From an uncultured Verrucomicrobiae bacterium (GTDB lineage: Bacteria > Verrucomicrobiota > Verrucomicrobiia > Opitutales > JABDGR01): a stretch of DNA of 64,000 bases. The notes beneath the pieces are model-generated. The model did not search any database, had not been told where the DNA came from, and worked only from the letters and a program-made list of their open reading frames with translations. The DNA lies in assembly GCA_963765205.1 (NCBI GenBank), contig CAVXVB010000009.1, forward strand, positions 1,024,001 to 1,088,000, given 5' to 3'. Position numbers and translations under genes: made by a program. Positions 1,139 through 8,771 of this stretch are shown piece after piece. How positions within the stretch are numbered: the stretch's first letter is position 1; every line of letters starts with the position of its first letter.

Positions 1139-2503
1139 TCATTTCGTCGAAACGCCGATGGTCTCCCCGCCATACCAGCGATGCAAGACTGCGGGCACGC
1201 GCACGCGGCCGTCGGCTTCGAGGTTGTTTTCCAGAATCGCGGCGAGCACGCGCGGCACCGCGAGGCCGGAGCCGTTAAGCGTGTGGACGACTTCCGGCTT
1301 GCCGCCGTCGGCGGGGCGGTAGCGGATGCCCGCGCGGCGCGCCTGAAAGTCCGTGAAATTCGAGCAGCTCGAGACTTCCAGCCAGCGCTTTTGCCCGGCG
1401 GCCCAGACTTCGAGGTCGTATTGCTTGGCGTGCGGGAAGCCGATGTCGCCCACGCAAATCAGCAGCACGCGATACGGGAGGCCGAGTTTTTGCAGCAGGC
1501 GCTCCGCGTCGGCGCGCAATTTCTCCAACTCCTCGAAACTTGTCTCGGGCTTGACCCACTTGACGAGTTCGACCTTGTCGAACTGGTGCAGGCGATTGAG
1601 GCCGCGGACATGCGCGCCCCAACTGCCGGCCTCGCGCCGGAAACAGGGCGTGTAGCCGCAGCGGTAGAGCGGCAAATCCTGCTCGCCCAAAATCTCGCCG
1701 CGGAAAAAATTCGTCACCGGCACCTCGGCGGTGGGGATGAGATACAAATTATCCACGCCGACGTGATACATCTGGCCTTCCTTGTCGGGCAACTGGCCGG
1801 TGGCCGTGGCGCTGGCGGGGTTGACCATCAGGGGCGACCAGATTTCCGTATAGCCGGCCAGGCGTGCCTCTTCGAGGAAGAAGCTCACCAACGCGCGCAC
1901 CAGCCGCGCCATGTCGCCGACATAGAATGGAAAGCCCGCGCCCGTGACTTTCACGCCACGCTCGAAATCCACCTGCTGCGAAAACCACGGAATGTCGAAA
2001 TGCGGCGCGGCGTGCGGCGAAAGCTTGGCCACGTCACCCCAAGTTGAGACGGTGACGTTGTCGGCCTCGGTGCGGCCATCGGGCACGCTTTCGTGCGGGA
2101 GGTTCGGCACGGTCAGGGCGATTTTATCCCATTCCTCGTCGGCGGTTTTGGCCAGGGCTTCCAAGTCTTTGACGTGTGTGGAAAAAACTTTTAAGTAATT
2201 CTTTAGATCTTCTGAGCTGCTCAAACTCGGCAAAGATTTTTCTTCAGGGAATTGCTTCTGATACAACTTTAATATTTGCGCCTGAGAAAATGCGTCTAAT
2301 TCAAAGGGTCGAGGTTTGAGTGACTTAACATAACTCTCCTGAATCTTCTTCTGTTCACTTCGAGCCTGCTCGGCCTCGGCGACGGCGGCGCGGCGCTTCG
2401 CGTCGGCGGCGAAAACGGCGTCAAAGTCCACGGCAAACTTCTTGCGCGCGACGGTTTTGCGCACGCGGTCGGGTTCTTCACGCAGCAGCTTGAGGTCAAT
2501 CAT
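1139..2503 (-). CDS. serS: Serine--tRNA ligase
   Basis: MIDLKLLRE start; PNLPH, YLIPTAEVP, FRREAGS, RGLNRLHQFDKVE, EVSSCSN.TDFQARR and HTLNGSGLA motifs. Confidence 0.98.
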   Translation of the reverse strand: MIDLKLLREEPDRVRKTVARKKFAVDFDAVFAADAKRRAAVAEAEQARSEQKKIQESYVKSLKPRPFELDAFSQAQILKLYQKQFPEEKSLPSLSSSEDLKNYLKVFSTHVKDLEALAKTADEEWDKIALTVPNLPHESVPDGRTEADNVTVSTWGDVAKLSPHAAPHFDIPWFSQQVDFERGVKVTGAGFPFYVGDMARLVRALVSFFLEEARLAGYTEIWSPLMVNPASATATGQLPDKEGQMYHVGVDNLYLIPTAEVPVTNFFRGEILGEQDLPLYRCGYTPCFRREAGSWGAHVRGLNRLHQFDKVELVKWVKPETSFEELEKLRADAERLLQKLGLPYRVLLICVGDIGFPHAKQYDLEVWAAGQKRWLEVSSCSNFTDFQARRAGIRYRPADGGKPEVVHTLNGSGLAVPRVLAAILENNLEADGRVRVPAVLHRWYGGETIGVSTK

Positions 2504-5717: not shown

Positions 5718-8700
5718 ATGCCGTCCAACTTTGACCAAGCATTTGAGAAGGTGAAGCAACTTGTGGCCGATTTCCAAGCCAACGAGAAATTCTACCTCTC
5801 TCCGGCATATCAGGAGCAGGAAGCCCGCCACGATTTCATTGACAAGTTCTGGAGCGCGCTGGGCTGGGATGTAAACCACGAGACGCAAAAAAATCCTTAC
5901 GAGCAGGAAGTAAAAGTCGAGCGCAAGGGACAGGGGGCTTCCCAACGCAAGGCTGACTACGCTTTTTTTCTTAGTCCCGATTTTCGAAACGTGAAGTATT
6001 ACGTTGAGGCTAAAAAACCGTTTGGAGATATCGCGACCAGGGACAATTACTTCCAAGCCATACGCTACGGATGGGGCAGCCAGACCCCTGTTGCCGTGCT
6101 CCACAATTTCGAACAGTTTGAGATGGTGGATTGCCGCTATATGCCAAACGTAGAAACCGCGCTGCAGCAATGCATCCGAAAATACCGTTGTACCAATTAT
6201 CTAGAGCAGGAGAAATTTGCCGAAATCTACTGGCTCTTCTCCCGCGAAGCCCTGGCAGGTGGTTCTCTGAAAAAATTTGCGGAAACGCTCCCCAAAAAAC
6301 GACGCAACGTCGCCAAGCCCGGCTTAGCCAAAGGCGGAGATGAACCTATGGACGAAGCATTTCTTGCGGAACTCGGTCACCAGCGTGCAGCCCTCGCCCG
6401 TTCCTTCAAAAACAACAATCCGGAGCTTGACGGCGAAAAACTCACCGAACTCACCCAACGCACACTGGATAGGCTGGTTTTCCTGCGTTTTCTCGAAGAC
6501 AAACATATCGAGCCGCAAAACCGCATCCCTTATTTCGGCGACAAAAGAACGGCCTGGCAGGACTTTATTGCCGAATCCCGTCGCTTGGACGGCATCTACA
6601 ATGGCATCGTTTATAAACACCACGACCTGTTGGATTCGCCCTGGTTTAAGGTTGATGACGACACTTTTGCTTCGATCTGCAAACGGCTGGGTCACCTCCA
6701 TTCGCCTTATGACTTTAACGCCATCCCCATTCATATTCTCGGCGGCATTTATGAACGTTTTCTTGGGACGGTCATTGTCACAACTGATAAACGGGCAACC
6801 CCAGTCGAGAAGCCAGAGGTGCGCAAGGCCGGCGGCGTTTACTACACCCCCGAATACATAGTCCACTACATCGTCGAAAACACCGTGGGCAGGTTAATTG
6901 AGGGCAAAACACCGGCACAAATTGAAAAGTTACGCTTTGCTGACATCGCCTGCGGCAGCGGTTCATTCCTTCTGGGCATTTACGATTGTCTGCTCCGCTA
7001 CCACACCAAGTATTACAACGACAATCCCGCCAAGGCAAATATAGGAGGTAAAGGAAAAAAGGGGCTATGGCCAGATTGCGAACAGCGTGACGACGGTTTA
7101 CATCTAACCTTGCGAAAAAAACGGGAAATTCTACTGAACAATGTTTATGGCGTGGACATAGACGCGCAAGCTGTGGAAGTCGCACAACTCTCCCTTTACC
7201 TCAAACTATTGCAGGACGAAACACCAGCCTCCGCCCGCGAACATCAGTTGGAATTCCACGAAACAATTTTACCCCCGCTCAACAAAAACATCATCTGCGG
7301 AAATTCCCTGATTGGGACAGACATTTTGGACGAGCAACTGTTCGCCGGAGGGGAAGAACGCAAACTCAACGCGATGAATTTCGAGGACGCCTTCCCGCAT
7401 ATCTTCAAGCGCAAGAGCCTGACCAATGAATTGCACGAGCCGCCGCCATCCGCTCCGCTTGGTTTTGACCTGCCTGGCACACCATTGCATGGTGCTTTCA
7501 GTTACAAGAAGCTCAAAAAGGCCAAACTCACCACGGGATCGCGACCATCCGAATCAAATTTGGCAGGTGGCTTTGACGCCATTGTCGGCAATCCGCCCTA
7601 CGGGGCAACTCTCACCCCGGCTGAATCAGAATATTTGTTGCAAAAATTCAAACTTCAGGAATACCAACTTGATACTTATCTTTTGTTTGTCGAACGCGCC
7701 TTGTCGCTAGTCGTTGAAAAGGGGTTAATAGGCCTGATTATTCCGAACACCTGGCTGCTCAATTTACTTTCACCGCAAATCCGAAAAGCAATTTTTGAAA
7801 AAACAAAAATCGAGAGCATCGCGCATTACCGTTACCCGGTCTTTCATCAAGCGACGGTTGACACCGAGGTGGCCATCTTCAGAAAGCAAAAACCAGATGT
7901 GGCAGACATGATCAATATCACACTGGTGGAAAAAGACGGACGCACGGATAACTACCCAATAGCGCAACAGCGCTGGCGGGACGGCCACGGGAAAGCCGTA
8001 AATATATTCGAGCGGCCGGAAATGATTGGCTTGGCGGACAAACTAAAATCACTTCGGCGCTTGGACGATGTTTGCCGGATTACCCAAGGCGCGAAACCGT
8101 TTCAAGTGGGCAAGGGAAAGCCGCCCCAAACCCGAAAGGTTGTTGATGAAAAACCATTCGTTTCCACGAAGCGGGAAAATTCAACTTTTCGGCCGCTGCT
8201 CCGTGGCAGTTTGATGAACAAATACACCATCTACTGGAACAAGGATTACTGGATTAGTTTTGGCGACTGGCTGGCCGAGCCACGCTATTCAGCGGATTAC
8301 GACGCAAGCGTCAAAATTATTGTTCGCCAAACTGGCGACTCCTTGATCGCCACCCTTGATCGTGAACAATTTATTGTGCGCGACAATCTTTACACCATGG
8401 TTCCGCGTGCAGACGCATTGGATTTAAGGTTTATCCTGGGGCTGATCAACTCGACCCTCTTGAATTGGTTTTACCAAAATGTGCTTAATCCAGAACGAGG
8501 AGAAGCTCTGGCGCAAGTAAAACGCGGCCATCTGGCTGAGCTGCCAATACTTGAATTTAAGGCTGCCGAGGCCCGCTACGCCCGCATTGTCCAACTGGTG
8601 GAACAAATGCTGGCCGCGCAGAAGCAACTGGCTGGCGCGCAAACCGACAAGGACAAGAGTTATTACGAAAAAAAATGTGCCTCACTGAGCCGGCAAATCG

Positions 8701-8771
8701 ACGCGCTGGTCTATGACCTTTACGGTTTGACCGAGGACGAAATCAAAATCGTAGAAGGAGCCACCGCATGA
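5718..8771 (+). CDS. Type IIG restriction-modification enzyme (fused REase, N6-adenine MTase and target-recognition domain; Eco57I/TaqI-C-like)
   Basis: N-terminal KADY...YVEAKKP nuclease motif; GGVYYTP, DIACGSGSFL (motif I), YGVDID and GNPPY (motif IV); C-terminal IDALVYDLYGLTEDEIKIVE; lower GC than flanks. Confidence 0.92.
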   Translation: MPSNFDQAFEKVKQLVADFQANEKFYLSPAYQEQEARHDFIDKFWSALGWDVNHETQKNPYEQEVKVERKGQGASQRKADYAFFLSPDFRNVKYYVEAKKPFGDIATRDNYFQAIRYGWGSQTPVAVLHNFEQFEMVDCRYMPNVETALQQCIRKYRCTNYLEQEKFAEIYWLFSREALAGGSLKKFAETLPKKRRNVAKPGLAKGGDEPMDEAFLAELGHQRAALARSFKNNNPELDGEKLTELTQRTLDRLVFLRFLEDKHIEPQNRIPYFGDKRTAWQDFIAESRRLDGIYNGIVYKHHDLLDSPWFKVDDDTFASICKRLGHLHSPYDFNAIPIHILGGIYERFLGTVIVTTDKRATPVEKPEVRKAGGVYYTPEYIVHYIVENTVGRLIEGKTPAQIEKLRFADIACGSGSFLLGIYDCLLRYHTKYYNDNPAKANIGGKGKKGLWPDCEQRDDGLHLTLRKKREILLNNVYGVDIDAQAVEVAQLSLYLKLLQDETPASAREHQLEFHETILPPLNKNIICGNSLIGTDILDEQLFAGGEERKLNAMNFEDAFPHIFKRKSLTNELHEPPPSAPLGFDLPGTPLHGAFSYKKLKKAKLTTGSRPSESNLAGGFDAIVGNPPYGATLTPAESEYLLQKFKLQEYQLDTYLLFVERALSLVVEKGLIGLIIPNTWLLNLLSPQIRKAIFEKTKIESIAHYRYPVFHQATVDTEVAIFRKQKPDVADMINITLVEKDGRTDNYPIAQQRWRDGHGKAVNIFERPEMIGLADKLKSLRRLDDVCRITQGAKPFQVGKGKPPQTRKVVDEKPFVSTKRENSTFRPLLRGSLMNKYTIYWNKDYWISFGDWLAEPRYSADYDASVKIIVRQTGDSLIATLDREQFIVRDNLYTMVPRADALDLRFILGLINSTLLNWFYQNVLNPERGEALAQVKRGHLAELPILEFKAAEARYARIVQLVEQMLAAQKQLAGAQTDKDKSYYEKKCASLSRQIDALVYDLYGLTEDEIKIVEGATA

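Follow-up and report, generated by a model that had tools for sequence, protein, structure and literature searches.

An in-frame AT-rich replacement at the tip of the seryl-tRNA synthetase arm, and similar recoded patches in the tRNA-charging genes of one bacterial genome

Here, we found that the tip of the tRNA-binding arm of the seryl-tRNA synthetase (SerRS) of an uncultured Verrucomicrobiae bacterium has been replaced in frame by an AT-rich patch, and that this patch in the serS gene is real. We speculate that the replacement is a rare cassette which was probably acquired by recombination and is probably kept against phage or toxin proteins, a reading to which, taken as a whole, we assign a probability of roughly 55%. 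The gene lies in a window of 64,000 nucleotides, by which we mean the whole stretch of DNA that was analysed. The host genome of 4.0 Mb has about 60% GC and is 92% complete, and the nearest named relatives of its SerRS are Opitutales. The features of serS are as follows, in window coordinates:

1139..2503, minus strand: serS, encoding a 454-residue seryl-tRNA synthetase; one open reading frame with Pfam domains PF02403 and PF00587
2366..2503, minus strand: native 5' part, codons 1-46, start of arm helix 1, GC-rich codons (GC3 38/47 over codons 1-47)
2165..2366, minus strand: replaced tract of 202 nt; the corresponding stretch of a close relative measures 115 nt, which is 87 nt or 29 codons fewer
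2177..2365, minus strand: AT-rich recoded patch, codons 47-109, comprising the end of helix 1, the tip and the start of helix 2 (codon-model segment score 28.1, GC 0.38)
2195..2281, minus strand: net extra 29 codons, approximately residues 75-103 and of uncertain placement, with most of the predicted helix 71-84 and a loop (from alignments and AlphaFold2)
1139..2164, minus strand: native 3' part, remainder of helix 2 and class II catalytic domain (GC3 283/346 over codons 109-454; matches to SerRS structures in the PDB)

The product is a SerRS of the bacterial type, in which Seryl_tRNA_N (PF02403, E = 1.6e-15) is joined to the class II catalytic domain tRNA-synt_2b (PF00587, E = 7.2e-37), and its top fold match is 2dq3. 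An earlier note on this DNA, made from the letters alone, had described a low-GC patch that uses TTA, CTA, ATA and AGT codons, has sharp boundaries and keeps the frame, and each of these points was confirmed. Positions 2181-2360 contain 65 G or C in 180 (0.361) and the frame is open throughout; no other 180-nt segment of serS is as poor in GC, segments lying fully outside the tract having a minimum of 0.59 and a mean of 0.64. GC3 amounts to 24/63 within codons 47-109 and to 321/391 over the rest of the gene (Fisher p = 2.8e-12). The codons TTA (three), CTA (one), ATA (one), CGA (two) and TCT (two) are confined to the patch, while AGT occurs three times inside and twice outside, and the amino-acid identity to relatives is 0.21-0.29 inside the patch compared with 0.83-0.90 outside. 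The bounds, given earlier as 2180-2362, could be refined to 2177-2365 by codon usage and to 2165-2366 by comparison with a close relative. Near serS, at window positions 5718-8771, lies a gene for a 1017-residue restriction-modification fusion (Pfam Eco57I, TaqI_C and N6_Mtase), the start of which, in the part that was profiled, has a GC content below that of its neighbours.

In an AlphaFold2 model the arm helices (residues 27-61 and 97-129) are retained and a helix is added at the tip (residues 71-84), with moderate confidence (pLDDT 57-74 over residues 61-100), which agrees with the original placement of the patch at the tip of the SerRS coiled-coil arm. R48, Q51 and K105, which lie within the patch, are invariant or nearly so. 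In solved SerRS complexes the arm touches the tRNA's variable arm as well as its T-loop (accessible part of PMC4666401). Because serS is single copy (tblastn against its own genome returned one locus) and the genome carries four tRNA-Ser genes, we predict that the patched enzyme still charges tRNA-Ser and that its arm ends in an additional helical knob.

Could the patch be an artefact of assembly? The assembly contains frameshifted CysRS and TyrRS genes as well as a foreign-looking start of contig C7, which is what a chimera produced during assembly has in its favour. Against this, both serS junctions are covered by short-read contigs, drawn from two studies, that match the assembly exactly. 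Contigs of the runs X1 (2124-2276), X3 (2099-2331) and X2 (2059-2209) cross the 3' junction with zero differences, and the 5' junction is crossed, also with zero differences, by a single 151-nt contig of depth 2.4 (X2, 2304-2454). One of the two studies possibly represents the source sample, the two junctions are bridged by different pieces, and this read-level check covers the serS patch, one of eight patches described below. In addition, the patched gene has retained its reading frame and the key residues of the arm. The serS patch is not chimeric; a chimera is largely refuted and we consider its remaining chance negligible.

Comparison with relatives reveals what the patch stands for. A contig of the metagenomic run X5 is identical to serS at 105/111 positions over 2054-2164 and at 48/49 positions over 2367-2415, with 115 other letters between, and a contig of the run X6 is identical at 140/150 positions over 2367-2516 and then departs at 2367 into the standard allele. 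Since the relative is about 95% identical in the flanks and carries 115 nt where serS has 202, we conclude that the tract took the place of a shorter one, as supposed in the earlier note, adding 29 codons on balance, and is not a pure insertion. Its edges are sharp, the relative's contig joining 2164 to 2367 directly around a different tract. The corresponding interval is 65 residues long here and 36-37 residues in 118/119 related SerRS proteins (the remaining protein is N-terminally truncated), in keeping with the initial estimate of a protein roughly 30 residues longer than typical. A standard arm was found in 8/8 fetched family relatives and in 14/14 close relatives and cluster members that were aligned. 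One prediction was that close relatives would carry differing patches at this position. It fails for the SerRS tip, where the family relatives, 118 of the 119 database relatives, X5 and X6 all have the standard arm, and it holds for HisRS, AlaRS, ThrRS and ValRS, in which relatives have their own different and unrelated versions at the same site.

We searched more widely for other alleles of the SerRS tip. No second arm-tip split was found, among the matches listed, in 334 genomes of the order and 385 genomes of the phylum, in a search that could miss short inserts or same-length recoding. Two SerRS matches occurred in 9/334 matching order genomes, this genome included (among the matches listed). 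The other eight were explained by contig ends (four), a duplicated copy (one), frameshift-like breaks judged from coordinates (two) and a GC-rich insert elsewhere (one). The order-level relative G254 carries a GC-rich, alanine-rich SerRS insert just after the arm, at a site that differs from the tip. Among metagenome loci, 78 of 80 could be parsed and contained no other arm-tip allele, and long SerRS arms in this set were start-site miscalls. In the sets searched, neither the SerRS tract in a second backbone nor several alleles at the tip were found, and rare ones may exist. The search for homologues of the patch itself returned self alone among 14 candidates, six weak matches in 400 phylum genomes (E 0.04-0.09), and one match in 1.84 billion representatives to a 1959-residue repeat protein, which we judged spurious. 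No homologue was found in phages or plasmids, and none of these collections yielded a donor of the SerRS patch.

Is the patch confined to serS? A codon-model scan of the genome, a check that the earlier note had proposed, found further in-frame low-GC patches in essential genes, with internal AT-shifted patches in ValRS, AlaRS, HisRS, LeuRS, GatB, SerRS, ThrRS and IleRS, and the identities of all eight genes were confirmed by Pfam. With a patch defined by a score of at least 15, a GC content of at most 0.50 and native codons on both sides in open reading frames of at least 300 residues, 8/18 tRNA-charging genes carry one compared with 10/1440 other frames (p = 3.6e-12), where the thresholds were fixed after the data had been seen and the comparison set includes some spurious frames. 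Among frames of at least 450 residues the counts are 8/16 and 9/718. The diversified target, previously described as surfaces of housekeeping proteins, is narrower in this genome and consists of tRNA-charging enzymes. MetRS, AsnRS and GlnRS were not located by motifs, GatA and the frameshifted TyrRS stand outside the counted set, and an apparent CysRS patch (score 33) was judged to be a frameshift and discarded. The frameshifts of CysRS and TyrRS in the assembly are probably sequencing errors, and the C-terminal segment of TyrRS, likewise AT-shifted (score 14.4), is a possible ninth patch. The carriers among the other frames include a type ISP-like restriction enzyme (by sequence), a GH115 hydrolase and a sigma-70-family protein (by Pfam). 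The AT-shifted internal tracts of the GH115 hydrolase and the sigma-70-family fusion protein reach scores of 87 and 72 and equal those of the synthetases in strength.

Among 35 rows of control core genes, identified by motif, internal shifted inserts were found in MnmG and an MnmE-like gene alone; these are of a repeat-like type and were left out of the patch count because their GC content is above 0.50. Both genes are tRNA-modifying (MnmE-like gene and MnmG, contig C7, 80323-81897 and 84321-86537) and contain long inserts that keep the frame and encode repeat-like peptides, a class distinct from the AT patches that is also present in several other genes. The alaS gene (contig C9, 1166552-1170232) contains an in-frame insert of about 235 residues (approximately residues 325-560), separate from its AT-rich patch, which is absent from relatives and to which a Pfam scan gave no name. 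The start of contig C7 (1-3000) holds a second, frameshift-ridden alaS-like region with different neighbours and resembles contaminant DNA or the chimeric end of a contig. As a donor of the alaS patch this region was rejected, being 25% identical to the native patch region, frameshifted and foreign-looking.

Most patches consist of a small insertion or an unalignable core within a longer tract of homologous codons. At conserved residues, about 0.25 of the fourfold sites match relatives within patches, compared with about 0.62 outside, and the GC content at fourfold sites is 0.405 in patches (n = 390) and 0.92 outside. Chance identity at the native fourfold composition is 0.47, and native sites within the genus are near saturation; therefore, these values show a change in equilibrium composition, and the age of the patches is undatable. 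Silent G and C change as freely as silent A. Amino-acid identity in the patches ranges from 0.68-0.76 in GatB and about 0.5 in ValRS to the 0.21-0.29 of SerRS. The silent sites of the patches have lost the GC bias of the genome, and the protein stays family-like under purifying selection. Patches in GatB, LeuRS, IleRS and SerRS were found in this genome alone among the relatives examined, and for ArgRS it is relatives that have differing alleles, with a patch in the congener G001. In another congener, G006, thrS is about 70% identical to that of the present genome outside the patch, compared with at least 90% in the others, and is possibly a ThrRS of another type in its catalytic half.

Evidence on how patches travel comes from ValRS. 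Over residues 1-505 its sister is P0134, with 94% identity and a support of 100/99. Over residues 598-866, P0134 is just 49% identical, and P0123, which is 76% identical here (backbone 87%) and shares indels, is the sister at 100/99. The tract tree and the backbone tree are thus discordant, and AU tests rejected the swapped groupings (p = 0.0001 and 0.023; the groups were named after the trees had been seen, and long branches are present). Judged from the protein sequences, ValRS patches move between lineages by recombination, a demonstration that is specific to ValRS. The ValRS patch alleles nest in the clade of the family, and their best database matches are the family and other Opitutales. 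As the alleles lie within the family clade, no distant donor is needed. The word 'foreign', which had been applied to the patch, is therefore doubtful, the traceable ancestry (ValRS and ArgRS) being the family's own lineage.

A scan of ArgRS, LysRS, AspRS and PheT in relatives was independent of the patches of this genome. It found a true patch in 1/34 loci, with none in LysRS, AspRS or PheT, compared with 0/27 control loci of EF-G, GyrA, PyrG, UvrB and SecA, a count that alone is not significant. A PyrG patch match in G008 fell in non-coding upstream DNA that contains a stop. The true patch is that of ArgRS in G001, which extends over 308 codons (contig C150, 4066-5847) through the catalytic core with a one-residue insertion; its protein is 68-72% identical to the family, and its fourfold identity is 0.16-0.27. 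With the catalytic core inside this patch, exposed loops are not the only places where patches lie.

How could such a patch arise and persist? Eight tRNA-charging genes are patched in a genome whose other genes rarely are, and therefore swaps of DNA cassettes between relatives are the likely means by which these essential enzymes were diversified, possibly as part of an arms race against phages or toxins. We infer that swapping also took place at the SerRS tip itself, by a route like that of ValRS: the tract would have arrived as a rare variant cassette via homologous recombination in conserved flanks, and such cassettes would be exchanged among kin. A diverged segment that is unable to recombine internally would escape GC-biased gene conversion, its silent sites could then drift to about 40% GC while purifying selection went on, and its edges would be reset at each recombination into a new backbone. 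GC content tracks intragenic recombination, according to the accessible part of PMC4450053. The weakest step concerns maintenance, in which rare alleles may persist by frequency-dependent selection from agents that bind synthetases or are charged by them; it is the persistence of the patches and their restriction to charging enzymes that point to selection for rarity. Candidate agents would be modifier proteins of phages (T4 Vs, for example), kinases of the HipA type and phage tRNAs, the last of which depend on host synthetases. The ValRS of the host is modified by T4 vs, which is important in minimal medium (PMC13716836), and the HipA and HipT kinases inhibit synthetases (PMC6581861), as described in the accessible parts of these sources.

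Several findings speak against a recombined cassette. The SerRS tip is a singleton in all sets searched (among the matches listed), whereas an old allele pool predicts others; a donor was not found in the collections searched; and the unbiased replicate in relatives is small and non-significant. A singleton without a donor, together with a family-like protein and near-uniform silent sites, would be accounted for by local hypermutation, the main rival, which we nevertheless hold to be unlikely. Repeated cuts or invasion (in-frame homing, RAYT-type elements), followed by error-prone repair or co-conversion, would scramble the tract, and the SerRS patch would have arisen in place, perhaps from a short helix duplication, with purifying selection keeping the protein working. 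The large in-frame insert in alaS of the same genome, absent from relatives, lends itself to this explanation, but it lies at a different place from the alaS patch. Likewise, a weak internal repeat in the SerRS patch at offset 22 (40/2000 shuffles score as high) is not visible in the DNA (34/132). Moreover, neither a reverse transcriptase (PF00078) nor a template copy was found in this 92% complete genome, G and C silent sites vary as freely as A, contigs of 2018 and of 2024 show no difference over the serS patch, and hypermutation alone leaves the ValRS alleles that are common to non-sisters unexplained.

Sharp edges, an open frame and a family-like protein with another codon usage are also what ordinary horizontal transfer would give, from unsampled relatives with silent sites of about 40% GC throughout their genomes, and small-genome lineages (seen as small genomes alone) are present in the order. 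The ValRS patch, however, nests in the family clade with the family's own mosaics as best matches, the family orthologues examined are GC-rich outside their patches, and transfer of this kind offers no reason for the restriction to synthetases or for the many unrelated alleles per site; we consider it quite improbable. Also improbable, in our judgement, is neutral tolerance, in which permissive sites such as the SerRS arm tip accept random AT-rich insertions and no selection for diversity acts. The tip does accept large grafts, as in the dynein-SerRS fusion of PDB 3err, and vertebrate SerRS has insertion I in its arm domain (accessible part of PMC4666401). Tolerance leaves unexplained, however, why conserved flanking codons are recoded over 75-300 codons in GatB, ValRS and ArgRS, and the large essential controls (35 rows, with MnmG and the MnmE-like gene as exceptions of GC above 0.50) lack such patches.

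Synthetase genes are treated as stable core markers, yet 8/18 in one genome hold tracts of alien composition, and at least one has a tract history unlike that of its backbone. Such patches can bias trees built from marker genes and can pass for chimeras, and they provide a natural test of whether the loss of recombination alone erases GC bias under purifying selection. If selection by phages or toxins is true, the patches would map where antagonists touch the translation machinery, and the long-open purpose of phage synthetase modifiers such as T4 Vs would become testable. More tentatively, and with less than even confidence, we speculate that synthetases are a general battleground, in which bacteria would keep pools of interchangeable, compositionally isolated cassettes for the parts that handle tRNA in most charging enzymes simultaneously, as a means of evading phage or toxin proteins or of rejecting foreign tRNAs. 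Variant cassettes would then sit in nearly half of the charging genes of this genome, and the SerRS tip would be a newly opened site.

How do the patches compare with known systems? DGRs combine a template repeat, a reverse transcriptase and adenine-specific change, and resemble the patches in their local hypervariability inside an open frame. They are excluded here as far as testable, by the lack of a template repeat, of PF00078 in the 92% complete genome and of adenine specificity. Inteins and in-frame palindromic or REP-type insertions also place extra in-frame sequence in essential genes and bring a splicing domain, a flanking duplication or terminal repeats. In serS, host codons were replaced rather than merely interrupted. 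The serS product has the SerRS Pfam domains alone, no repeats bracket the serS junctions and the genome holds no second copy of the patch, so that the reported lack of an intein or IS signature stands. An intein is ruled out (no Hint domain, just 29 extra residues), as is an IS, MITE or REP-like insertion (no terminal repeats, target duplication or further copies). Vertebrate insertion I likewise enlarges the tRNA-binding arm domain by a segment of comparable size, and the SerRS of Pyrococcus (PDB 2dq0, 455 residues) has a longer arm with a tip insertion. These arm insertions are fixed lineage features, whereas the SerRS patch is strain- or species-level and compositionally alien, and the patch has no sequence match to the human or Pyrococcus insertions, the best stretches beginning after it.

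Mosaic alleles formed by recombination are known from penA and pbp genes and from the swapping of target-recognition domains in R-M systems, and replacement flexible islands and the flagellin variable region are reportedly replacement cassettes, likewise exchanged by homologous recombination. Mosaic and replacement cassettes share with the patches a divergent AT-shifted segment, conserved flanks and sharp edges, and alleles discordant with their backbone are shown here for ValRS. ValRS thus qualifies as a replacement cassette and SerRS does so in part, by its sharp tract between near-identical flanks (X5). In contrast to those mosaics, the tracts described here lie in cytoplasmic essential enzymes and in many members of one functional class within one genome. 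The aaRS homeoalleles of Andam and Gogarten are variants replaced among kin, sometimes via conserved-flank recombination, and consist of whole, anciently diverged genes, two ThrRS forms being about 29% identical (accessible part of PMC3191353). Here, we instead find tracts of 50-300 codons within one gene lineage, and a homeoallele is ruled out for serS, which is 83-90% identical to family relatives outside the patch. A literature search, conducted without most subscription journals or supplements, found no description of hypervariable cassettes across synthetases, and PMC3000692, in its accessible part, mentions a MetRS deletion only. The present analysis contributes the within-genome enrichment of patches in tRNA-charging genes, the empty-site allele at read level, and the ValRS and ArgRS tests.
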